Shown here: one piece after another, positions 49,110 to 61,133 of the stretch | Layout: each line of letters opens with the position of its first letter | Numbering within the stretch: the first letter of the stretch is position 1 | NCBI GenBank assembly: GCA_900551855.1 | Contig: URXM01000002.1 | Span: forward strand, 102,290 to 166,289 | Source: an uncultured Eubacteriales bacterium | GTDB lineage: Bacteria > Bacillota > Clostridia > Christensenellales > UBA1242 | Direction: 5' to 3' | DNA: 64,000 nt | The notes under the pieces: model-generated | The model's database searches: none | Told to the model about the DNA's origin: nothing | The model's input: only the letters and a program-made list of their open reading frames with translations | Made by a program: the position numbers and the translations under genes

Positions 49110-49186
49110 TGGTGGAGATAGACGGACTCGAACCGTCGACCCCCTGCTTGCAAGGCAGGTGCTCTAGCCAACTGAGCCATACCCCC
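49110..49186 (-). tRNA. tRNA-Ala (anticodon UGC), CCA encoded
   Basis: The reverse strand reads GGGGGTATGGCTCAGTTGGCTAGAGCACCTGCCTTGCAAGCAGGGGGTCGACGGTTCGAGTCCGTCTATCTCCACCA. The cloverleaf folds, with the G3:U70 Ala identity pair and anticodon loop CTTGCAA. Confidence 0.95.
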
Positions 49187-49797: not shown

Positions 49798-50010
49798 CTA
49801 TTTGCAGTTGCAACCACCACAGTTTGAAAGCAAAATTAAGAACAAGAGAGTTCCGCAGTCAATGCAGATTTCTCCGCCTTTCATTCCGCCAAAACCACAT
49901 CCGCAGTTTTGTAAAAGCAAAAGTAAGAAGATAAGTGAGCAGGTGTCCATTCCGCATCCGCCACATTCTCTACCTACATCGCCACAATTAGAGCCTCCAA
50001 AAAAGTTCAT
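49798..50010 (-). CDS. Small Cys/Gly-rich protein with two hydrophobic helices (internal duplication)
   Basis: RBS: reverse strand AATAGGAGGCACAAATG. The 70-aa product contains two units of [CGxC...C-(S/G)-L-(I/L)-F-L-(L/I)-L-L-x-N-C-G-(C/G)]. Confidence 0.55.
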   Translation of the reverse strand: MNFFGGSNCGDVGRECGGCGMDTCSLIFLLLLLQNCGCGFGGMKGGEICIDCGTLLFLILLSNCGGCNCK

Positions 50011-50263: not shown

Positions 50264-50824
50264 ATGAAAAGTTTAAGTATGAAAAAAGTAATGTCAATTT
50301 TGGCTTGCATGGTTATGGTTCTTGTGGGAGGAGTTCTTCTTGCTTCTTGCGGTGAAACAAAAACAAACAACGATGTTGTTGCAACTCCAACAGACAAGGT
50401 CGTTGATTTTGGTGGAAGAATAGATTGGAAAAATGCTGAAGATTTGAAACTTACATACCTTGGAGACAACAACTACAAAGCTGAAGGCTCAGCAGCAATT
50501 ATGTCTGCAGAACAAGGAGCTGCTTGGGGCTGTGATGAAGGTTCTATGTATGTTATTCTCAGCATCAAAATGGAAACTGGTGCAACATTAAAAACAGGTT
50601 GGAGAACTTCTGCGGACGAAGAATTTGGTAAAGGAGAAGGAAGCAACAAGGACTATTCTGGAACGGAAGGAGTGAAAGAATTTGTTTTGGGACTTTCTAA
50701 TGGTTCAACACCAACTCACACAGAAAATCCAGTTTGGAGATGTGAAGTTACAAACCCAGTTGAAGAAGGAGAAACTCCAACAACAGTTGTTTTCACAATC
50801 GACTTTTCTGCACTTTATGAATAA
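50264..50824 (+). CDS. Lipoprotein (186 aa)
   Basis: RBS AAAGGAGG. The signal peptide ends with lipobox LLASC|G. Confidence 0.8.
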   Translation: MKSLSMKKVMSILACMVMVLVGGVLLASCGETKTNNDVVATPTDKVVDFGGRIDWKNAEDLKLTYLGDNNYKAEGSAAIMSAEQGAAWGCDEGSMYVILSIKMETGATLKTGWRTSADEEFGKGEGSNKDYSGTEGVKEFVLGLSNGSTPTHTENPVWRCEVTNPVEEGETPTTVVFTIDFSALYE

Positions 50825-50835
50825 AACAAAAATTA

Positions 50836-50868
50836 TAAAAAGTATGTCAATCCGACATACTTTTTTTG
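50836..50868 (+). terminator. Rho-independent terminator
   Basis: AAGTATGTC (50840-50848) pairs with GACATACTT (50854-50862), then a T-run. Confidence 0.7.
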
Positions 50869-50915
50869 TATTATTTGTCCTTTTGTGTTATCATAAAAAT
50901 ATGGAGGAGAATAAG

Positions 50916-52202
50916 ATGAAAAAGATATTATCAATCATGGCTTGTTTCATGTTTGTGCTTGTTGGGGGAATTGCTTTGTCTGCTTGTGGAAATGGGAACA
51001 AAATTACAAAAGAACAACTGATTGATTATTTGTCGGGAGATGGTGTTGTTTCAGAGTTTGATGGCTATGAGTTGAACAGTGTTATTGGGAATATGGAAAT
51101 AAACGCTACAGTTGTTTCAAATGGGGAAACATTGAATGCGAAGATTGTTTATCCTGGTGCACTTCAATCTTCAAGAAATGGAACAATATATATAAAAGAC
51201 AATGTTGTTTATTTTACTACTGCAGAGCATAAATATTATATGGGAATAGATAATTATAACGAAGCGGTAGACAACATAAATGATATCATAAATTATGACG
51301 GCGATTTGACTGACTCTATTATATCTTTTGTCAATGGAGGAATTGATGGAAAGTTGACAATAACCAAGAAATCAAATGGTGAAAATGTCGCTTTCAAATT
51401 AAGTAATACGCTTGAAGTTGGGGAAAATAAAACAATAAGCACTGTTGAGTTGAAATATACAAGCAACAAATTGAAGTCTTTTTCATTGATAACAATCTCT
51501 CATGATGTTGTTATAACAAATATCTCTCTCAATGAATTTGTTGGCAATATTGATTTTCCGGACTTTTCAGATTATGAAGCCTTTTCAAATGTTGAAACGG
51601 TTGATTTGGAAGAAGTAAACAACTATTTAAACAAATTAAACAGCACATGGACTTCTTATGAAGTTTTTGATGGCATTTGTCAAAATGTTAAATATGATGC
51701 AAAAGTCTCTCTTGTTGATGAAAAACTTCAAGTGGAAGTTATAGCAGAAAACGGATTTAAAATCTATTTGAAAGACAATGTAGTTTATTTTGATAATGGA
51801 ACAAAAAAAATCAAGGCGAAATTCAATGGACTCGGGTATTTTGATGTTGATGATGTAAATTTTGGAGAAGCATATGATTTTATTTCAAGTGCCGTAGTTG
51901 TTGAGGATGATGTAAACAGTGTTTTCAATTCTACATTTATAACTGGCGAACTTAAATATGTGGAAGAAATGGTTTCTTCTGGATACTGTAAAGCTAAGAT
52001 TGAGATGAGCAAAGATGCTGATTTGACTACATTTGTGATTTCTTTGTCTTATGGAGATGAGACTTCATCAAGAACACTTATGTTTGATGCAACAAAACTT
52101 TTGGAATATTCTGCAGAAACTGTTGATGGAATAACTTCATTTGTTTATTCAAATGTTGCAATTGAATTCCCAGATCTTTCAGAATATGTTGAAGTTGTTT
52201 AA
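50916..52202 (+). CDS. Lipoprotein (428 aa)
   Basis: ATG at 50916 lies behind GGAGGAG. Signal peptide MKKILSIMACFMFVLVGGIALSAC|G is near-identical in pattern to that of the preceding lipoprotein. The track start at 50682 overlaps the upstream gene and its terminator. Confidence 0.8.
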   Translation: MKKILSIMACFMFVLVGGIALSACGNGNKITKEQLIDYLSGDGVVSEFDGYELNSVIGNMEINATVVSNGETLNAKIVYPGALQSSRNGTIYIKDNVVYFTTAEHKYYMGIDNYNEAVDNINDIINYDGDLTDSIISFVNGGIDGKLTITKKSNGENVAFKLSNTLEVGENKTISTVELKYTSNKLKSFSLITISHDVVITNISLNEFVGNIDFPDFSDYEAFSNVETVDLEEVNNYLNKLNSTWTSYEVFDGICQNVKYDAKVSLVDEKLQVEVIAENGFKIYLKDNVVYFDNGTKKIKAKFNGLGYFDVDDVNFGEAYDFISSAVVVEDDVNSVFNSTFITGELKYVEEMVSSGYCKAKIEMSKDADLTTFVISLSYGDETSSRTLMFDATKLLEYSAETVDGITSFVYSNVAIEFPDLSEYVEVV

Positions 52203-53195: not shown

Positions 53196-53225
53196 TTGAC
53201 TTTTGAAAAATATTCTTGATATAAT
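53196..53225 (+). promoter_or_regulatory. Extended -10 promoter of the ESCRT-like operon
   Basis: TTGACT (53196-53201), 18-nt spacer ending in TGA, TATAAT (53220-53225), about 40 nt upstream of the first ATG. Confidence 0.6.
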
Positions 53226-53266: not shown

Positions 53267-54109
53267 ATGGAGCAAAACATTATCACTTTTACAGGAAACA
53301 ATCAAAAATTGTTGTCAAGATATATAATTGAAAAACTTGATCCAAAATTGACACTTATTGTGCCTGAAACTCACAATGCAATTTTGATTAAAGATGGTCA
53401 AATGCTTCAAACCTTATCTTCTGGAAAATATTTAATCAGCAAATTTGTTGATTTGAAAACAGAAGCAGATTCTGCACTTGAAATTTTGTTTATGTCAAAA
53501 ACAGCAAAACTTAAACTGCTTTGGGGAACTCCACAAAAACTTATTATGTATGACAACTTGTTGCAAGAAAATTATCGAGTTGGCATGAGCGGAGATTTTG
53601 AAGTCCAGGTAGGCGATCCAAGAAAATGCTTCTTATACCTTGTAGGAGCTTCCGAAGATTTGACTTCTGATGCTCTTCAAGACAGATTGATGTCAAATGT
53701 TGTTTCGGTGCTCGAAACAGTTGTTGTAGATTATGTAGAAACAAACAAAGTGTTGTTTAATCAAATTTCTCTTTGCAAAAAAGAGATTGCTTCAAAAGTT
53801 TTGAGCAAGTTGAGCCAAAAACTGATGAACGAATATGGTATTGCGGTTTTTTCTTTCAATATTGCAAACATTATTATTGATGATGAAGACAGAGAAAAGT
53901 TGGAGAAAGAATACAAACAATTAAAGAAGACAGAAGACTTTATCTGCAGAAATTGTGGAGCGGTGCTAAAAGAAAACGACAAGTTCTGTTCTGTTTGTGG
54001 GAAGAAAGTTGAGATATCCAAAAAATGTCCAAAGTGCTTTGCAGAGAATGCCGATGATGCAAAGTTCTGCTCAAGTTGTGGAGCAAAACTGTCAAATGAG
54101 GAGGAGTAA
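53267..54109 (+). CDS. SPFH/Band-7 (YdjI-like) protein with a C-terminal double zinc ribbon
   Basis: RBS AGAAGGGG. The body follows the YdjI-type SPFH pattern (...LIVPETHNAILIKDGQ..., LLWGTPQKL, YRVGMSGDFEVQVGDP, EYGIAVFSFNIANI). The tail has CRNC..CSVC and CPKC..CSSC. Confidence 0.75.
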   Translation: MEQNIITFTGNNQKLLSRYIIEKLDPKLTLIVPETHNAILIKDGQMLQTLSSGKYLISKFVDLKTEADSALEILFMSKTAKLKLLWGTPQKLIMYDNLLQENYRVGMSGDFEVQVGDPRKCFLYLVGASEDLTSDALQDRLMSNVVSVLETVVVDYVETNKVLFNQISLCKKEIASKVLSKLSQKLMNEYGIAVFSFNIANIIIDDEDREKLEKEYKQLKKTEDFICRNCGAVLKENDKFCSVCGKKVEISKKCPKCFAENADDAKFCSSCGAKLSNEEE

Positions 54110-54511
54110 ATGATAGCAGTTTATATTATAATTTTGTTGGCTGTTGTTGGACTTGCAGTGTTTTACATTTGCAGAGAATACATCAAAAAACCAGAAAATG
54201 AAGAAGGAAGTCGTGGAGTTGTAAAAAACAAAAAAAATATTGAAAAAATGGTGGCAAATGTTGAAAGCATACTTGTTTATGCAAACGGCAATGACGAGTT
54301 GTGCAATCGTTTAGTTGAAGTAAAAGACAACATCAGATTTTTCAATCCTACAACAAATCCAAAAGTTTTGTTGACAGATACAAAAATTGCAAACAAACTT
54401 GATGACTTGAAAATTATGGTTGCAAAAGACAACACACAAGAAACTTGCTTTAGAGTTTTGGAAGAGATTGAAGCATACATTGTTCAAAGAAAAAAGGATG
54501 AAATTGACTAA
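54110..54511 (+). CDS. Small N-terminally membrane-anchored helical protein
   Basis: The ATG abuts the upstream stop (TAAATG). One TM (IAVYIIILLAVVGLAVFYI) is followed by about 105 aa of charged, helical sequence. Confidence 0.6.
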   Translation: MIAVYIIILLAVVGLAVFYICREYIKKPENEEGSRGVVKNKKNIEKMVANVESILVYANGNDELCNRLVEVKDNIRFFNPTTNPKVLLTDTKIANKLDDLKIMVAKDNTQETCFRVLEEIEAYIVQRKKDEID

Positions 54512-54870
54512 TGAAAAGAACTTATCAAACTTCTGCTGATTTGCCAGAAAGCGAACAGGTGAAAACTTTGAACGAACTTAAACTTGGCTATTTGAATTTG
54601 AGCGACGGAATGTTTGAACAAGCAAAAGTCAACTTTCTTCTTGCTCTTCAATATGACAGCAAATGTGCAGATGCTTATTGGGGATTGATGCTTGTCAAGT
54701 TTCAAATAAAAAATGAAGACGAGTTATATTCCAATCCAAATACATATAAAAGTGCGGTTTATCTTCCAGAATATGAAAAAGCAATTGAATATGCTGAAGA
54801 AAATCAAAGAAAAAAATATGAAGATTTGTTGGACAGAATCTATAAGATCAACGAAGGAGACAATTATTGA
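54511..54870 (+). CDS. Small TPR-like helical protein
   Basis: The start overlaps the upstream stop (TAATG). The segment FEQAKVNFLLALQYDSKCADAYWGLMLVKFQIKNEDEL resembles a TPR unit and recurs in the 1273-aa protein of the same operon. Confidence 0.55.
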   Translation: MKRTYQTSADLPESEQVKTLNELKLGYLNLSDGMFEQAKVNFLLALQYDSKCADAYWGLMLVKFQIKNEDELYSNPNTYKSAVYLPEYEKAIEYAEENQRKKYEDLLDRIYKINEGDNY

Positions 54871-54902: not shown

Positions 54903-55517
54903 ATGTGGTGGCCATTTAGAAGAAACAAATTTAAAAATTTGAATAGAGAGGATCTTGTCAATTCTATTTGCGAACTTGAAAGACAAGAACGCACTGCCGA
55001 AGCAGAAGTTTATCAAAAGATAAAAGAGATTGATGCTTTGGTTGATAAAGGCAAGAAAGAGAAAAACAGAGAGTTGCAACTTTTCTATGCAAAGAAAATC
55101 AGTCATCTCAATGAAGAAAAGCAAACTTGTATGGAAAGAGGAATGTATTTGTTGTATAACATCAGGCTTATGAACAAACTTAAAGATGCATACGACAGCA
55201 ACACATTTTTCAAGACTCAAACAAAAGTGCCTTTAAGTGAATTGTTGCAAGACCAAAAGAGATTGGCAAAGTTTTTGAATAAAGCACTTGAAACAAGAAT
55301 TTCTTCCGAAGACGTTTTGACAAGTGCGGACGAACTTTTCAACGAAGTTCAATCTGCTTATGATGTAAGTCAACCAATTTATGGAGTTGGAAAAAACGAA
55401 GAAGAAATTTTGAGTATGTTTGAAAAAGAAAATCAGTTAAACGATGAGCAAGAACTCATGGAAGACAAAGAAAAGTCAGAACCAATAAAAAAGAAAAAGA
55501 TGAAGATGGAGGAATAA
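54903..55517 (+). CDS. ESCRT-III superfamily protein, Snf7/CHMP4-like (tentative)
   Basis: RBS AAAAGGAG. A 204-aa all-helical protein whose core IKEIDALVDKGKKEKNRELQLFYAKKISHLNEEKQTCMERGMYLLYNIRLMNKLKD parallels the CHMP4 alpha1-alpha2 hairpin. The C-terminus is acidic. Confidence 0.6.
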   Translation: MWWPFRRNKFKNLNREDLVNSICELERQERTAEAEVYQKIKEIDALVDKGKKEKNRELQLFYAKKISHLNEEKQTCMERGMYLLYNIRLMNKLKDAYDSNTFFKTQTKVPLSELLQDQKRLAKFLNKALETRISSEDVLTSADELFNEVQSAYDVSQPIYGVGKNEEEILSMFEKENQLNDEQELMEDKEKSEPIKKKKMKMEE

Positions 55518-55520
55518 AAA

Positions 55521-56126
55521 ATGGCTTGGTTTAAATCTAAACAACAAAAAGAAATCGAAAAGAAGATGTTGATTAAAAGAACAATCAACTCAATGAACAA
55601 ACAGATCAATCGTTTGGAAGATCAAAAACAAGTGTTTATTGATGCTGCAAAGAGAGCAAAACTTAAAGGGCTTGATGCACAATTCAATTTGGCTTTGAGC
55701 GGTTATAAAATGACTGTTCAACAACAAAAGAGAGCACAAGAGATGCTTTTAAACTTTGAAATCACTGCACAAATGAAAGATGTCACAATGATGACTTCAG
55801 AGTTTTTGCGTGGAATGAGTGACATAAGCAAGGAAATGACAAAACTTGCAGATGCAAAAGAATTTGCCAAGATTCAAGCTCAATTTGAAGAAGCTATGGC
55901 TGCCGTTGAAACTCAAACAGATCAAATGGACAACTTTATGGAAATGAGTCAAGAAACTTTCTACAATCAAGGTGTTGACAAGAGTGGAAAGCAAATGTCT
56001 GATGAAGAACTTGAAAAGTTTATTATGGAACAAGCTTCTCAAGACGAATTGTCAAGCGAAAACATTGACAAAGAGATGGAAGAAGTTAGAAAGAAAATCG
56101 AATCTGAAACATCAAGCAAAGAATAA
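55521..56126 (+). CDS. ESCRT-III superfamily protein, CHMP2/Vps24-like (tentative)
   Basis: RBS GGAGG. N-terminal MAWFKSK... (compare MxLFGK in CHMPs). INRLEDQKQVFIDAAKRAKLKGLDAQ parallels LDRERQKLExQEKKIIADIKKMAKQGQMDA. MKDVTMMTSEFLRGMSDISKEM parallels MKGVTKAMGTMNRQM. The N-terminal half is basic and the C-terminal half acidic. Confidence 0.7.
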   Translation: MAWFKSKQQKEIEKKMLIKRTINSMNKQINRLEDQKQVFIDAAKRAKLKGLDAQFNLALSGYKMTVQQQKRAQEMLLNFEITAQMKDVTMMTSEFLRGMSDISKEMTKLADAKEFAKIQAQFEEAMAAVETQTDQMDNFMEMSQETFYNQGVDKSGKQMSDEELEKFIMEQASQDELSSENIDKEMEEVRKKIESETSSKE

Positions 56127-56158: not shown

Positions 56159-57301
56159 ATGGAAGAGACAAACATAAATGTGCTTTCTGACACTTTTAAT
56201 CTTTATATGAAAAAAGGCAAAGAAGCAAAAGAAAAAGGGAATATTACACTTGCAAAGCGAAATTTTTTGCTTGCTAGCGAAACAATGATGCAAATGGCAA
56301 AACAAAGCACTGGCAAACTCAAAGAAGTTCGTATGGATAGAGCACGCCGTCTTGTTGAGATTTCTGACAATTTAAACAAAAAACCTGCAAAGATAAACAA
56401 GAAAGATGAAAAAACAGAAGATGAAGAAGACGAAGATGTAAAAAAATGGCAAGCCGCAGAGATCCCTAAGATAAAATTTAGTGATGTTGCTGGGCTGGAA
56501 GATGTCAAAAAAGCAATCACTATAAGAATGATAAATCCTATCAAATATCCAGACAAATACAAAATGTATGGCAAAAAGACAGGCGGAGGAGTCTTGTTGT
56601 ATGGACCTCCAGGAACTGGTAAAACAATGATTGCCAAAGCGATTGCAAATGAAGTTGGGGCAAAATTTTATGCTGTTAAGGGCTCTGATATTGTCAGTAA
56701 ATGGGTTGGTGACAGTGAGAAAAACATAAATTCACTTTTCCAAGAAGCCAACAAACAAGACAGAGCAATCATCTTTATTGATGAAATGGACAGCCTTATT
56801 GGCAGGCGTGGACTTGACACTCACAATGACAAGAGAGTAAATGAATTTTTGCAACAAATTGATGGTTTTGCAGGAAGAAATCCAAACTTACTTTTGCTTG
56901 GTGCAACAAACAGACCTTGGGATATTGACAGTGCCGCAATGCGTTCGGGCAGATTTTCACAGAAGATTTATTTGCCTTTGCCAGATGCACCAGCAAGAAA
57001 ATTTATGATTGAAAAAAATATGAAAGGTGTTCCTGTTGCAAAAGATTTTGATGTGGACAAAATAGTCGCACAAACCGAGATGTATAGTGGGGCAGACATT
57101 GAAGAACTTTGTGACAGAGCAAAAGATGAGCCTCTTTTGAAAGCTATTGCAACAGATAGCATTATATTGGTAACCAACAAAGATTTTGATGATGTGCTTG
57201 AAAAAATGCCACCTAGTGTGACACCAAAAGAGTTGAAACAATTTGAAGAATACAACAACGAAATCAATGGTTACATAAAAAACAAAAAAGCAAAAAAATA
57301 A
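56159..57301 (+). CDS. Vps4/CdvC-like AAA+ ATPase (MIT-like N-domain plus a single AAA cassette)
   Basis: The N-terminal ~70 aa match the three-helix MIT pattern (KKGKEAKEKGNITLAKRNFLLASETMMQMAK...RMDRARRLVEISDNL), followed by an acidic linker. Motifs: FSDVAGLEDVKKAI, Walker A GPPGTGKT, SKWVGDSEK, Walker B IIFIDEMD, SRH ATNRPWDIDSAAMRSGRF. The C-terminal helix is PSVTPKELKQFEEY. Confidence 0.85.
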   Translation: MEETNINVLSDTFNLYMKKGKEAKEKGNITLAKRNFLLASETMMQMAKQSTGKLKEVRMDRARRLVEISDNLNKKPAKINKKDEKTEDEEDEDVKKWQAAEIPKIKFSDVAGLEDVKKAITIRMINPIKYPDKYKMYGKKTGGGVLLYGPPGTGKTMIAKAIANEVGAKFYAVKGSDIVSKWVGDSEKNINSLFQEANKQDRAIIFIDEMDSLIGRRGLDTHNDKRVNEFLQQIDGFAGRNPNLLLLGATNRPWDIDSAAMRSGRFSQKIYLPLPDAPARKFMIEKNMKGVPVAKDFDVDKIVAQTEMYSGADIEELCDRAKDEPLLKAIATDSIILVTNKDFDDVLEKMPPSVTPKELKQFEEYNNEINGYIKNKKAKK

Positions 57302-57311
57302 GGGTTTTTAA

Positions 57312-60300
57312 GTGAGAGAGCGTGTTTGTAAAAATTGTGGAGGGAGAAAATATAAAGTTGTTGGGCAGAACATGGTTAAATGTATGTTCTGTGGAACTCT
57401 CTATGTAGACGAACAGGCTTCCAAGGAAGAAGAAGTCCTTACAGTCAGAGCTTATGACAAACTTAGAGAATGCAAGTTTGACGAAGCTGTTGATGAATTT
57501 GACAAGATCTTGTCTTTATATCCAATGTCTTTTGAAGGAAGATATGGAAAAGTTTTAGCAAAAAATAAAATCATTCTTTACACAAACAAAAGAGGAGTTT
57601 CAAAAAGACCTCGTTTTTTTGGCGAAGAAATACCTTCAATTTTGGAAGAGGAAGACTTTAAAGAAGCAGTAAAAAATGCACCTCCAGAAATGGCAAAAAC
57701 ATATACGGACCAAGCCAAGAGAATTGAAAAAATAAGAAAAAATTATTTGGAAGAGACAAGCAAAGACAAATATGATGTTTTTGCTTGTGCCTTAGATTTT
57801 GATAAAGAAGACGAAAATAGTGTCGTAGCAAAAGCATTGGAAGAATTGAAAAACGAAGGTCTTGCTGTTTATTTTGTTCAAGGACTTGATCATAGAGAAA
57901 GAGAGGAAGATTCTTTCCAAGCATTGAAAACAGCAAAAGTGTTTTTACTTTTTGCAAACGATGAAAAAAATTTCAACAATGGGGAAATAAAGAATTTTTA
58001 CGACAGATACTTATATTTTATCTCTCAAAGAAAAAAGACAAAAAGCAGTTTTATCATTGCGCTAGACAGCGAGAAAATTTCTGCTTCAGAATTGCCAAAA
58101 GAATTGACCACATTTAAAAATGTTGTGGATATAAACCAAATTTCTTTTTTACAAGATTTGAAAGTAATCGTAAAAAAAGAAATGGAAAATTCTATTGATG
58201 AAGTTGCGAAAATAGACACAGTTAAAATTGAAAAAGTCGAGCCAGAGAAAAAAGCATATGTTGACATTGAAAGCATAAATCCAAGTGAGCTTGGACATTA
58301 TCATGTTGAAAATGTTGAACTTAGTGATGCAAACAAAATCAAATGGATTTTCTTGACGCTGAAGAATGGTGATTTTGCTTCGGCGACAGACTTGATTGAA
58401 AAGGGTTTGGAAAAAGATCCATACAATTCGGAACTTATGTTTGCACAGCTTATGGCCGAAAACAACATCAAAACTCAAGAAGAGTTTTTCTTGAATATTG
58501 CAAACTTTAGGGACAAAGAAAAAATTGACAAACTGCTCACTTATGCTTCAAAAGATTTTGCAGAATATTTTGTTGACAGTTGGGAAAAACTTGTTGAGAG
58601 ACTTGATAGTGAGGAATATTACAACGCATTTTTACTTTATTTGGCAAAGTATACATCACCAAACAGAAATAACTTTATTGAAAAAGCAGAAAACAAGGCT
58701 GTTGAAACATTAAATGAAGAACTGATTGACAAAGTTTTGAAGTGTTTTAAAAGTGATGAAGTTGATAGATTTGTTCAATTTTACTTTATGCTTGCACAAA
58801 AAAGTGATGATCAAAAATATTATCAAAAAATTTTGGACATTGATGCTGGACACGAACAAAGCAATATTGCTGTTTTGTTGCAACATTTCAAGACTGAAGA
58901 AGATTTGCTAAACTATCGAAACAAAGAAGAAATAGAAAATTCATTTAAATATTTAAGTGAAAATTCAAGGACAAGATTTGTTTCTTCTTTGATAAATATG
59001 ATTTTGCCAATTGCGTTTTATGATTTATCAAAGGCAGAAGAACAGTTGGATTTCTATTTGTCATATGTTGCCGATGATCAAGAGCTTGCAAAGATACTTC
59101 AACAAATTGCGAGCGTTTTTCAAGAGCAAGGATTTTTTAAACAAGCAGAAAAATATATTTCTATTGCTATTTCAAAGGATAATTCAAACAGCGAATTATA
59201 TTGGCAACTTATAGAAATCAAAGCTCATTGCAAAACCGACAATGAGATCATTATGTCAAATGTAAAGGTTTCTCAAATGCCAGAATGGGAAACATTGCTT
59301 AGTCTGTCAGATGAAAAACAAACAGAAAAGTATGCTGAAATCACAAGCAAAGCAAATTTATATTCTGGAGAAAAAATCCCATTTAAAATGGATTTGCCTG
59401 ACAAGGTTAATTTGATACAAGAGATACAAGATTTTGTTAATAGAAACGAAAAGATTTTGTTGGAGATAGAAAACCAAGAAGGGGACAAAGTCTTAAAAGG
59501 AATAAAATATTATAGCCTTCAACTTCAGCCTTTTGAAAAATATATTGAAGATATAAAAGGTATAAAAGACTTTAAAGATTATCAAGATATTTATTCAAAA
59601 ATCAATTCAAGACTAGAAGCCTTAAATTTGACATTGTTGACATCTGTAAATGTTATTGATTTGTTGAATAAGAGCGAAGGTCTTGTTGCAGTTTTTCAAG
59701 ATTCAAAACCAAAAATCACTAAAAAATCAAAACAAAAAGACATAAGAGACATAAAGAAAGATAAGTTTATTAAAAAGTTTTTATACATATTTTTGGAGCT
59801 ATTCCCAATCTTGTTTACAACTTTGCTTTTGGTGGTTTTGCTTGTCAATCCAAAAGAAGTTTACTTGTATTTCAGTCAAGAATTTTTGATAGTTTCTATG
59901 ATTTTTTCAACTTTGATAGGAATGATAAATCTTGTTGTTTTTATCAATATTAGGCACAAAGTTTCAAAGAAATGGAATATCGCAAACAGTATTCTGTTTT
60001 GTGTTGCCGGAATAAACATCATATTGATGTTGGCAGGACTTTATCTTTTCCCAGTGACAATGCAAATCAACAATGCAAAAGAAATGAGAGTGTTGCTCAA
60101 GAATGCCTCTTATTCAAATTTTGAATTGACAACGGACATTGATATGAGTGATAAGTCTTGGCAATCATTCAATTTTAGTGGATCATTAAATGGAAATGGA
60201 CACTCACTTACAAATTTAAAATTTGACAACAAAGATGGCAAGATTGGTTTGTTTAAAAGAAACAGTGGAGATATTAAAAATTTACAAATCTATTTGGCAG

Positions 60301-61133
60301 ATGAACAATATTCAAATATAAACAGATTTGGACCTATTGCAAGGTCAAATTATGGAGCAATTGAAAACTGTGTTGTTTATGGGACAATTGAATTAAACAT
60401 AAATGAAAATGCTGTTGTTGGAGGAGTAAGTGCCTCTATGGAAGGCGGAACAATTTTAAATTGTGAAACTTATTTGACAATAACAATAAATGTTGAAGAT
60501 GCAAATCTTACTTATGGTGGAATTGTTGGAGAAGTGAGAACAAGCCAAGGTGAGACAATTATATCTAAATCAACGAACAACAGCAATGTGATGATAAATG
60601 CTAACAATGCTCAGACAATCAGCGCTGGTGGATTTGTGGGGATTTTAAGACATTTGGACAAAGATGACTTTGATTTCTCTATAAATGCAAGCAATTCAAA
60701 TTTGCAAGTTTCTGGAAATGGGCAAGAAGTGATTGCTGGTGGTCTTGTAGGTCAAGGATACAGCAGCAGTGAAAACAATTATTCGACAGGGCTTATTGAT
60801 TTGTCTGAATTTGTTGGAAGTGGCTATGTTGGTGGACTTTATGGTGAGTATGAAAACACATCACTTCTTGATAGTATAAAAACAAGTTATTCTCTTGTTT
60901 CACTTGATGTAAACGATCAAGTTAAGGTCGGCGGACTTGTTGGAAGCCTTGGGGGAAAAATTGTTTATTGTTTCTCAAATGTCGTAGACAAAGATTTGGT
61001 TGGAGATACAAGATTTTCTTCTGCAGGAGCAGATAATTGCAAGCAATTATCAAACAAATTTTATGATGAGAGTTTGAATTTTGACGAAAATGTATGGGTG
61101 ATAACTGATACGGCTTATCCAATTTTCAAATAA
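57312..61133 (+). CDS. 1273-aa modular membrane protein: Zn ribbon, TPR-like repeats, TIR-like module, more helical repeats, three TMs and an extracellular GLUG-repeat domain
   Basis: GTG start 7 nt after AAGGG. Zn ribbon CKNCGG...CMFCG. YDVFACA...AVYFV...VFLLFAN...SFIIAL (nt ~57771-58120) has a TIR/flavodoxin-like beta-alpha pattern. Three hydrophobic helices lie at nt ~59763-60060. About eight (V/A/Y)GG(L/I/F/V)VG-type GLUG repeats follow, ending in VWVITDTAYPIFK. Confidence 0.75.
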   Translation: MRERVCKNCGGRKYKVVGQNMVKCMFCGTLYVDEQASKEEEVLTVRAYDKLRECKFDEAVDEFDKILSLYPMSFEGRYGKVLAKNKIILYTNKRGVSKRPRFFGEEIPSILEEEDFKEAVKNAPPEMAKTYTDQAKRIEKIRKNYLEETSKDKYDVFACALDFDKEDENSVVAKALEELKNEGLAVYFVQGLDHREREEDSFQALKTAKVFLLFANDEKNFNNGEIKNFYDRYLYFISQRKKTKSSFIIALDSEKISASELPKELTTFKNVVDINQISFLQDLKVIVKKEMENSIDEVAKIDTVKIEKVEPEKKAYVDIESINPSELGHYHVENVELSDANKIKWIFLTLKNGDFASATDLIEKGLEKDPYNSELMFAQLMAENNIKTQEEFFLNIANFRDKEKIDKLLTYASKDFAEYFVDSWEKLVERLDSEEYYNAFLLYLAKYTSPNRNNFIEKAENKAVETLNEELIDKVLKCFKSDEVDRFVQFYFMLAQKSDDQKYYQKILDIDAGHEQSNIAVLLQHFKTEEDLLNYRNKEEIENSFKYLSENSRTRFVSSLINMILPIAFYDLSKAEEQLDFYLSYVADDQELAKILQQIASVFQEQGFFKQAEKYISIAISKDNSNSELYWQLIEIKAHCKTDNEIIMSNVKVSQMPEWETLLSLSDEKQTEKYAEITSKANLYSGEKIPFKMDLPDKVNLIQEIQDFVNRNEKILLEIENQEGDKVLKGIKYYSLQLQPFEKYIEDIKGIKDFKDYQDIYSKINSRLEALNLTLLTSVNVIDLLNKSEGLVAVFQDSKPKITKKSKQKDIRDIKKDKFIKKFLYIFLELFPILFTTLLLVVLLVNPKEVYLYFSQEFLIVSMIFSTLIGMINLVVFINIRHKVSKKWNIANSILFCVAGINIILMLAGLYLFPVTMQINNAKEMRVLLKNASYSNFELTTDIDMSDKSWQSFNFSGSLNGNGHSLTNLKFDNKDGKIGLFKRNSGDIKNLQIYLADEQYSNINRFGPIARSNYGAIENCVVYGTIELNINENAVVGGVSASMEGGTILNCETYLTITINVEDANLTYGGIVGEVRTSQGETIISKSTNNSNVMINANNAQTISAGGFVGILRHLDKDDFDFSINASNSNLQVSGNGQEVIAGGLVGQGYSSSENNYSTGLIDLSEFVGSGYVGGLYGEYENTSLLDSIKTSYSLVSLDVNDQVKVGGLVGSLGGKIVYCFSNVVDKDLVGDTRFSSAGADNCKQLSNKFYDESLNFDENVWVITDTAYPIFK

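Follow-up and report, generated by a model that had tools for sequence, protein, structure and literature searches.

A bacterial AAA+ ATPase with Vps4/CdvC-like architecture, encoded beside an ESCRT-III-like gene in uncultured gut Clostridia

We analysed a 64,000-nucleotide (nt) stretch of DNA from an uncultured Eubacteriales bacterium (assembly GCA_900551855.1, contig URXM01000002.1, positions 102,290 to 166,289 of the forward strand), called the window throughout, and in it the ATPase gene at positions 56159-57301. The product of this gene, AAA380, is built like Vps4 and CdvC and most likely acts similarly on a Snf7-like partner, E201, whose gene lies directly upstream. We consider it fairly probable that AAA380 works like Vps4/CdvC, as the ATP-driven motor that remodels and recycles an ESCRT-III-like membrane system in bacteria. 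An earlier prediction, made from the letters of the sequence without database searches, had described the protein as a bacterial Vps4/CdvC-like ATPase with an MIT-like N-domain, and we followed up its claims here.

Architecture of the ATPase

The gene is an ATG-started open reading frame (ORF) on the + strand encoding 380 amino acids (aa), and the same gene appears in independent public gene calls. Its translation carries KEAKEKGNITLAKRNFLLASETMMQMAK, RMDRARRLVEISDNL, FSDVAGLEDVK, GPPGTGKT, SKWVGDSEK, IIFIDEMD, ATNRPWDIDSAAMRSGRF and PSVTPKELKQFEEYNNE, followed by INGYIKNKKAKK, and thus contains every motif that the original prediction quoted. An AlphaFold2 (AF2) model, computed from a 59-sequence alignment with a mean predicted local distance difference test score (pLDDT) of 81, shows an N-domain, a disordered linker, one cassette, a lid and a C-terminal helix, arranged as follows.

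56159..56377, + strand, residues 1-73: predicted MIT-like three-helix bundle; AF2 helices 2-25, 29-49 and 53-73, block pLDDT 88-95
56378..56449, + strand, residues 74-97: acidic, Lys-rich disordered linker; pLDDT below 50 at 74-92; length and sequence variable across the family
56450..57223, + strand, residues 98-355: single classic-clade AAA+ cassette without a beta-domain insertion
Parts of the cassette: Walker A GPPGTGKT 149-156; aromatic pore loop 1 SKWVG 180-184; Walker B IIFIDEMD 204-211; sensor 1 N251, then PW; arginines R262 and R265 in MRSGRF; lid 296-331
57224..57301, + strand, residues 356-380: Vps4_C-type C-terminal helix, short basic tail and stop codon; the Pfam Vps4_C match overlaps the start of the helix

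The cassette matched Pfam AAA at residues 145-274 with E=3.3e-42, far beyond chance, and AAA_lid_3 at residues 296-331. Catalytic residues (GPPGTGKT, SKW, DEMD, N251, R262 and R265) are invariant across the 59 family members. The NCBIfam CdvC model is collinear with the protein from end to end, residues 10-368 aligning with model positions 8-367 of 370. The acidic linker and single cassette of the original prediction were both recovered, as was its Vps4-like C-terminal helix: the AF2 model places a helix at residues 356-379, and Pfam Vps4_C matched residues 338-368 at 24.2 bits (curated cutoff 21.3). Vps4_C was further found in 19 of 28 relatives of AAA380, with a best E of 1.8e-9. Neither the AF2 model nor the motif columns showed a beta-domain in the AAA380 cassette; CdvC likewise has no beta-domain.

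From sequence profiles and the AF2 model together, we assign the N-domain as MIT-like with moderate confidence. The MIT signal in AAA380 is found at the level of the family profile and in the structure model only. When a profile of 27 family N-domains was compared with all PDB sequences, MIT domains ranked first, led by the Sulfolobus Vps4 MIT domain (2w2u, E=0.0015), a chitin-synthase MIT domain (E=0.0016, aligned over all three helices) and 2v6y (E=0.009). The calpain-7 MIT domain and full-length CdvC (4lcb) ranked lower, with TPR repeat proteins next at similar scores. Scanned singly, 13 of the 27 N-domains matched Pfam MIT (best E=2.6e-4), and every other family was found in at most four. 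One relative, P0356, has precomputed matches to both PF04212 (MIT) and PF09336 (Vps4_C). Aligning the family N-domain by hhalign with verified MIT sequences of yeast Vps4 and A. hospitalis CdvC gave P=3.3e-4, compared with P=0.6 for a control alignment with E204, a neighbouring protein of the operon, and the alignment reproduced the register proposed earlier, in which GN is aligned to GN. The N-domain models as a three-helix bundle, as the original prediction proposed, and its profile finds MIT domains first.

Placement of the cassette among AAA+ clades

Pairwise comparison of AAA380 with individual cassettes ranked p97-D2 highest at 201 bits, followed by yeast Vps4 (191), CdvC (161-177), p97-D1 (162), FtsH (155), katanin (152), PAN (148) and spastin (139). 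Pairwise identity was 36% to p97-D2 and 34-35% to CdvC. Among NCBIfam models, the CdvC equivalog scored 209.1 bits, below its cutoff of 650, and close to CDC48 (222 bits, cutoff 803), PAN (198) and FtsH (198). Similarity alone does not decide the clade, because the C-terminal cassette of Cdc48 is the nearest homolog of Vps4 (Makarova et al.) and because genuine CdvC likewise scores p97 highly, above eukaryotic Vps4, in a PDB search. PDB ranking was rejected as a clade test on this ground, and also because the scores of two-cassette Cdc48 proteins are summed. The SKW.G.SEK motif is not diagnostic either, since archaeal Cdc48-D2 carries it as SKWVGESEK. A C-terminal motif resembling the Vps4_C-type helix is likewise present in Cdc48-D2, so that helix is not exclusive to Vps4; the caveat entered on both motifs at the outset was justified.

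We turned to a neighbour-joining tree, computed for 58 cassettes from 251 alignment columns and bootstrapped under three distance corrections. The Vps4, katanin, spastin, PAN and FtsH references were each verified as nearly identical to a PDB chain over full coverage (2.1-2.2 bits per residue), three CdvC sequences were taken from search output, and retrieved archaeal loci supplied the D1 and D2 cassettes of Cdc48. The bacterial family grouped with CdvC, Vps4, katanin and spastin at 91-95% bootstrap across the three corrections and at 93-100% with taxon deletion and stricter trimming, and its grouping with Cdc48-D2 received 0-2%. This placement, away from FtsH, PAN and Cdc48, agrees with the clade first proposed. 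The family was itself monophyletic (84-100%) and lay outside CdvC; without it, monophyly of the meiotic clade stood at 52-61%. An N.PW motif after sensor 1 is common to the bacterial family, CdvC, Vps4 and katanin.

In the second region of homology (SRH), all sampled CdvC, Vps4, katanin and spastin references read LR--RF, two residues shorter than LRPGRF. The bacterial family lacks this two-residue deletion, which marks it as a sister lineage, distinct from CdvC orthologues. Judged from sequence, the ATPase probably belongs to a bacterial lineage sister to archaeal and eukaryotic Vps4-katanin-spastin, and is not a recent import of CdvC. Of the Vps4/CdvC-like assignment, the architecture and the tree grouping hold; equivalence with CdvC itself does not, given the full-length SRH and a score below the CdvC cutoff.

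The ESCRT-III-like partner and its operon

The gene directly upstream of the ATPase (55521..56126, + strand) encodes E201, a protein of 201 aa that we regard, with moderate confidence, as a divergent Snf7/ESCRT-III-like protein. Three independent lines, from profiles and a predicted structure, point this way. Pfam Snf7 was found in 27 of 34 members of the E201 family, ahead of all other families, with a best E of 7.8e-5 in one relative. A Foldseek search with the E201 model returned S. islandicus CdvB at ranks 1, 2 and 4 (probabilities 0.72-0.94, E=0.09-0.15), and further matches included CdvB2, CHMP1B, Asgard ESCRT-IIIB, CHMP2A/3, Vipp1 and PspA, intermixed with BAR and Shroom coiled coils. 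Finally, a diverse E201 profile compared with PDB placed CHMP2A on top, collinear over positions 17-146 at E=0.11. PspA was considered for E201 and rejected; the family matches Snf7, and PspA_IM30 is absent from the families listed in the per-member scan. Makarova et al. 2024 use gene neighbourhood with ESCRT-III as the operational criterion for Vps4, and in the window a Snf7-like gene adjoins that of AAA380.

E201 begins with the motif MAWFKSK, and its AF2 model (pLDDT 72.5) has helices at residues 7-49, 52-106, 112-151, 161-172 and 179-199. As in ESCRT-III, its charge is asymmetric, with a basic N-half and an acidic C-half. A variable, flexible acidic linker leads to helix 179-199 at the C-terminus, which is conserved (ID.E.E.LRKKI). 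The three-helix bundles of MIT domains bind MIT-interacting motif (MIM) elements in the tails of ESCRT-III proteins (PMC9477494). We propose from its sequence and position that helix 179-199 is a MIM-like element, laid out as helical MIMs are in the tails of ESCRT-III proteins.

The original prediction had counted two Snf7-like neighbours. This is supported for E201 only; the 204-aa E204 showed no ESCRT-III similarity. A profile-profile comparison found no relationship between E201 and E204, and the idea of two Snf7-like paralogues is therefore unsupported. Single-sequence searches of both proteins against PDB and Pfam returned nothing, and a first E204 profile of close relatives compared with PDB retrieved no ESCRT-III protein. 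E204 is nonetheless well conserved and always lies immediately upstream of E201. It has a basic N-half and an acidic C-half, with a conserved DDxLLAMFE-type motif at residues 164-176 followed by a variable tail.

On contigs that carry an identical ATPase, public gene calls recover this layout of seven genes, of 280, 133, 119, 204, 201, 380 and 1273 aa. Gaps between the genes are -1 to 32 nt. Besides E201 and AAA380, the cluster has the following features.

53196..53225, + strand: promoter-like site, the best sigma-70-like match (TTGACT, 18 nt spacer, TG-TATAAT, 11 of 12; consensus match only)
53267..54109, + strand: SPFH280, 280 aa; SPFH/Band_7_1 at residues 29-215 fused to two C-terminal zinc ribbons
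54110..54511, + strand: TM133, 133 aa; one N-terminal transmembrane (TM) helix at residues 2-20; start abuts the SPFH280 stop
54511..54870, + strand: TPR119, 119 aa; small TPR-like helical protein with weak TPR matches only; 1-nt overlap with the TM133 stop
54903..55517, + strand: E204, 204 aa; helical protein without a family match, with a hydrophobic/basic N-terminus (MWWPFRRNKF)
57312..61133, + strand: BIG1273, 1273 aa; N-terminal zinc ribbon, TPR-like repeats, degenerate TIR-like region, long helical region, three predicted TM helices at residues 826-912 (nt 59787-60047) and a C-terminal beta-helix/adhesin-like region

The promoter-like site lies about 40 nt upstream of SPFH280, the first gene of the cluster, and no terminator-like site was found on the + strand between 53267 and 61133. 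SPFH280 matched Pfam Band_7_1 (E=7.5e-14), DZR (5.4e-13) and Zn_Ribbon_1 (1.3e-14), and is similar to a scaffold of the YdjI type that bears zinc ribbons like those of YdjG.

When species-representative genomes were scanned, 45 bacterial loci were found, in Caccovivens, Coproplasma, Christensenellaceae and Catabacter-labelled metagenome-assembled genomes, plus single ones labelled "Bacilli" and "Anaeroplasmataceae". In 43 of the 45, down to 47% identity of the AAA protein, the genes keep the order SPFH plus zinc ribbon, E204, E201, ATPase, an arrangement thus shared across Christensenellales-like Clostridia. A large TPR/membrane protein of the BIG1273 type is present in most loci and TM133 was detected in 34; TPR119 is conserved within the window's clade. 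Where the ATPases are 81-95% identical, E201 and E204 are 82-97% identical. Many species of the window's clade share the flanking genes, an SDR gene upstream and an ABC transporter downstream, and the G+C content of the operon is the same as that of the rest of the window. AAA380 has end-to-end matches in at least 22 clusters at 50% identity, and the family goes under the names "ATP-binding protein", "hypothetical" or generic COG names only.

The loci differ in the genes that accompany this core. In BIG1273, the TIR-like region (about residues 163-262, nt 57798-58097) is degenerate (YDVFACAL, IKNFYDRY) and gave no match to Pfam TIR_2; the W..E glutamate is replaced by a hydrophobic residue in the window's clade. 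Its homologues at loci L083 (9868-12969), L041 (11380-13900) and L084 (9480-13823) scored 42.5, 38.8 and 28.3 bits with TIR_2, above the Pfam threshold, and keep the glutamate. Divergent-clade operons add a BrxL-like ATPase (BrxL_N plus BrxL_ATPase, E=3e-105), a trypsin-like protease, or both, as at L083:8439-9881, L084:13853-15265 and L084:8550-9449. The BrxL-like gene occurs in nine loci (L083, L084, L024, L027, L031, L033, L036, L040 and L045) and the protease gene in at least ten, including L023-L027, L031-L033 and L035; the window's clade has neither. At L083 and L084 the flanks are housekeeping genes. These additions, which the original prediction had not included, hint at an origin in conflict systems. 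The TIR/BrxL context leaves the molecular mechanism that we infer for the ATPase unchanged and concerns its biological role.

The ATPase family varies as well. About half of its members have a C-terminal extension of 100-150 aa that the window protein lacks, in which a linker rich in Pro, Glu and Lys is followed by a conserved domain of about 85 aa that is probably beta-rich and ends in GIEENDLGI. Examples are P0177, P0188, P0194, P0344 and P0369, among others, and the loci L024, L027, L031, L033, L035, L036, L040, L041 and L045. Among the loci examined, the extension occurs in divergent clades, most of which also have a BrxL-like or trypsin-like gene. Some relatives start with the same MIT-like N-domain and have two cassettes (P0173, P0181 and P0327-P0331, about 700-757 aa; P0219, P0244 and P0246, 718-1013 aa); these may correspond to the ATPase with two AAA+ domains that Ravi et al. 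2024 mention as a partner of bacterial PspA/Snf7. L044:214-1362 encodes a paralogue of 382 aa that is 34% identical, has a helical N-domain of similar kind and reads LRPGRF in its SRH. Its stop codon overlaps the start of L044:1362-2717, which encodes a 451-aa soluble FtsH-like AAA-protease with HEVGHAL and no TM helix, and no Snf7-like or SPFH genes lie in its surroundings. The pair may be a sister system that couples an MIT-like ATPase to proteolysis.

Proposed function, alternatives and relation to known systems

The arrangement suggests the following mode of action. E201, possibly joined by E204, would polymerise on the membrane's cytoplasmic face. SPFH280 and the single-pass TM133 would organise this polymer or hold it in place, in the way that YdjI acts on PspA in Bacillus. 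A hexamer of the ATPase would then dock through its MIT domains on the C-terminal helix of E201, and perhaps on the DDxLLAMFE motif of E204 as a second putative site, and thread a subunit through its pore, so that the polymer is disassembled or remodelled. BIG1273, with its zinc ribbon, TPR, pseudo-TIR, three-TM and beta-helix parts, may serve as a transmembrane adaptor or sensor that sets the place or time of this activity. Docking on the tail and disassembly of the polymer are inferred here, as are the parts played by the SPFH, TM and big proteins and the biological outcome. In the window's clade the output is most likely maintenance of the envelope and membrane, or vesiculation.

Several observations weigh against a Vps4-like motor acting in an ESCRT-III-like system. 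The N-domain of AAA380 by itself gave no Pfam MIT match, and the proposed kinship with MIT (PF04212) thus held for the family profile and the relatives and not for the single sequence. Likewise, E201 of the window gave no Pfam Snf7 match on its own, a first E201 profile restricted to close relatives retrieved no ESCRT-III protein from PDB (hmmsearch), and the E204 profile matched no family in Pfam, NCBIfam or PDB and showed no ESCRT-III or PspA similarity. The statistics for MIT and Snf7 are marginal or sub-threshold, with a best E of 1.5e-3 for MIT against PDB, 7.8e-5 for Snf7 in one relative and 0.09-0.15 for the Foldseek matches to CdvB. The motor is nearest to Cdc48/p97-D2 in sequence (201 bits vs 161-191 for CdvC/Vps4), and in structure the best 50 Foldseek matches are all p97/Cdc48, mainly D2, with a root-mean-square deviation of 2.5-2.9 A over about 280 columns at 34% identity. 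The SRH keeps the ancestral R[SP]GRF, as in Cdc48, PAN and FtsH. The tree that separates the family from these proteins is a neighbour-joining tree with few reference taxa, in which long-branch attraction could have joined two divergent groups. Lastly, the TIR, BrxL-like and trypsin-like genes of related clades make a purely housekeeping role less likely.

This last point bears on a reading of the operon as a conflict or defence system, which we consider possible but unlikely. A TPR-TIR membrane protein would sense an invader or an envelope insult, and the Snf7-like/SPFH module with the ATPase would form an effector directed at the membrane, or an arm that limits damage. Under such a scheme E201 may still be the substrate on which the ATPase acts; the role would be immunity or regulated cell death, and the copy in the window would be degenerate or domesticated. 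The TIR_2 matches above threshold with their retained glutamate, the BrxL-like and trypsin-like genes, the patchy taxonomic distribution and variable accessory domains such as the ATPase extension all speak for it. Yet the window's clade has lost or lacks the TIR glutamate, BrxL and trypsin, the chromosomal context is constant over many species, identities of 82-97% in E201 and E204 are unusual for defence genes, the flanks at L083 and L084 are of the housekeeping kind and the G+C content is native. PADLOC-DB 2.0 gave generic AAA matches only (IetA, TRIP13) for the ATPase and none for the other six proteins, and a known anti-phage defence system was rejected on this basis. A further, about equally tentative reading takes the operon for an old, vertically kept bacterial machine of the ESCRT-III/Vps4 type. 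Its ATPase would have diverged before the SRH deletion that marks all archaeal and eukaryotic Vps4, katanin and spastin arose, and its fuller form would be wired to TIR, BrxL-like and protease parts.

Closeness to Cdc48 could instead mean that AAA380 is a general unfoldase of the Cdc48 type, with a generic TPR-like N-domain, that feeds proteases, and that its coiled-coil neighbour reflects no ESCRT-III/Vps4 relationship. The D2 cassette of Cdc48, p97 and VAT shares with AAA380 the R.GRF SRH, the C-terminal PSV...L..(F/Y)E motif and the top pairwise and structural match; archaeal Cdc48-D2 also has SKWVGESEK, TPR proteins come just below MIT in the N-domain search, the L044 paralogue is translationally coupled to a soluble FtsH-like protease, and some operons have trypsin-like proteases. 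However, Cdc48, p97 and VAT have two tandem cassettes, a double-psi-barrel N-domain, no MIT domain and no linkage to an ESCRT-III gene, whereas AAA380 has one cassette and a helical N-domain. MIT is also the top and most consistent match (13 of 27 members vs at most four for any TPR family), the tree gives Cdc48-D2 next to no support, and the partner gene, which three independent lines mark as Snf7-like, accompanies the ATPase in 43 of 45 loci. We therefore find the unfoldase improbable. Least probable by far is a recent transfer of an archaeal CdvC/Vps4 gene. The full-length alignment of the CdvC equivalog model and the absence of a beta-domain, as in CdvC, would fit it, and archaea-to-bacteria transfers of VPS4-like ATPases, with snf7 replaced by a TPR-6TM gene, are on record (Ravi et al. 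2024, PMC11237479). It is effectively refuted by the score of 209 bits against a cutoff of 650, the 34-35% identity to CdvC, the lack of the SRH deletion seen in all three CdvC sequences, the monophyly of the family outside CdvC, the native G+C content and the cluster diversity at 50% identity, which points to a long residence in bacteria.

The preferred reading, a Vps4-like motor serving an ESCRT-III-like polymer, has its closest structural parallel in archaeal CdvC/Vps4 (PDB 4lcb, 4d80 and 4lgm; MIT 2w2u and 2v6y), which has the same part order and size (about 370-380 aa). Shared parts are an MIT-type three-helix N-domain, a flexible linker, one cassette without a beta-domain and a C-terminal helix, together with the SKW pore loop, N.PW after sensor 1 and an adjoining Snf7/ESCRT-III gene, and in the cassette tree the bacterial family and CdvC/Vps4 are nearest clades. 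AAA380 differs from CdvC in identity, in model score, in having R[SP]GRF where CdvC has LR--RF and in its bacterial host. CdvB uses a proline-rich MIM2, and the tail of E201, unlike it, would carry a helical MIM1-like motif. Where archaeal Cdv systems have CdvA, the operon instead has genes for SPFH, TPR and (pseudo)TIR proteins.

Ravi et al. 2024 (PMC11237479) also describe bacterial PspA/Snf7 beside an ATPase with two AAA+ domains, of which the N-terminal copy is inactive, and suggest ATP-dependent remodelling of bacterial PspA/Snf7. A bacterial MIT-AAA+ ATPase and a TPR plus multi-TM partner protein are common to their cases and ours. Those cases, including ACB74714.1, are set apart by their descriptions from the present operon, where a single-cassette MIT-ATPase, a Snf7-like protein, a TPR-TM protein and an SPFH protein occur together. 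YdjI, an SPFH protein, localises PspA, and archaeal Meth_adaptin ESCRT loci include a protein with SPFH and a zinc ribbon (PMC10936438). As in the window, the B. subtilis PspA-YdjGHI module and the Meth_adaptin loci thus have an SPFH/zinc-ribbon protein beside an ESCRT-III-superfamily gene, and the latter also have a Vps4 ATPase (PMC10936438). The Bacillus module differs in having PspA and no ATPase, and the Meth_adaptin loci in having adaptin-like and GOLD proteins and no TPR, (pseudo)TIR or beta-helix protein (PMC10936438).

Recent reviews confine the pairing of Snf7/ESCRT-III with a Vps4-style ATPase to archaea and eukaryotes, and a 2025 review describes a Vps4-like ATPase as apparently absent from bacteria. 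Full-text literature searches found no paper on this operon or on a link of TIR or BrxL to Snf7/Vps4. The operon offers a concrete, testable bacterial counterpart for the open question of how bacterial polymers of the ESCRT-III superfamily are recycled, and with its ATPase family as a new outgroup, the time at which Vps4 arose from Cdc48 could be estimated. In some lineages the operon ties ESCRT-like machinery to components of the TIR/BrxL type, and it would place machinery usually viewed as a eukaryotic signature in abundant uncultured gut Clostridia. If the operon were the old, vertically kept machine described above, the Snf7-MIT-AAA+ partnership would be no archaeal invention, or would have crossed between domains very early, and the TIR-bearing forms would be the first case in which an immune-like system of bacteria has an ESCRT-type arm for membrane remodelling.

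Two further observations concern the window upstream of the operon. At 49798-50010 on the - strand, about 600 nt from a tRNA-Ala gene (49110-49186), lies a 70-aa ORF that is extremely Cys/Gly-rich and has hydrophobic stretches (MNFFGGSNCGDVGRECGGCG...CGGCNCK); it could encode a small Cys-rich membrane peptide or be a chance ORF. Nearer the operon, adjacent + strand ORFs at 50264-50824 and 50682-52202 have lipoprotein-type signal peptides (…LLASCG and …ALSACG), and homologues of these occur in only some of the related loci.

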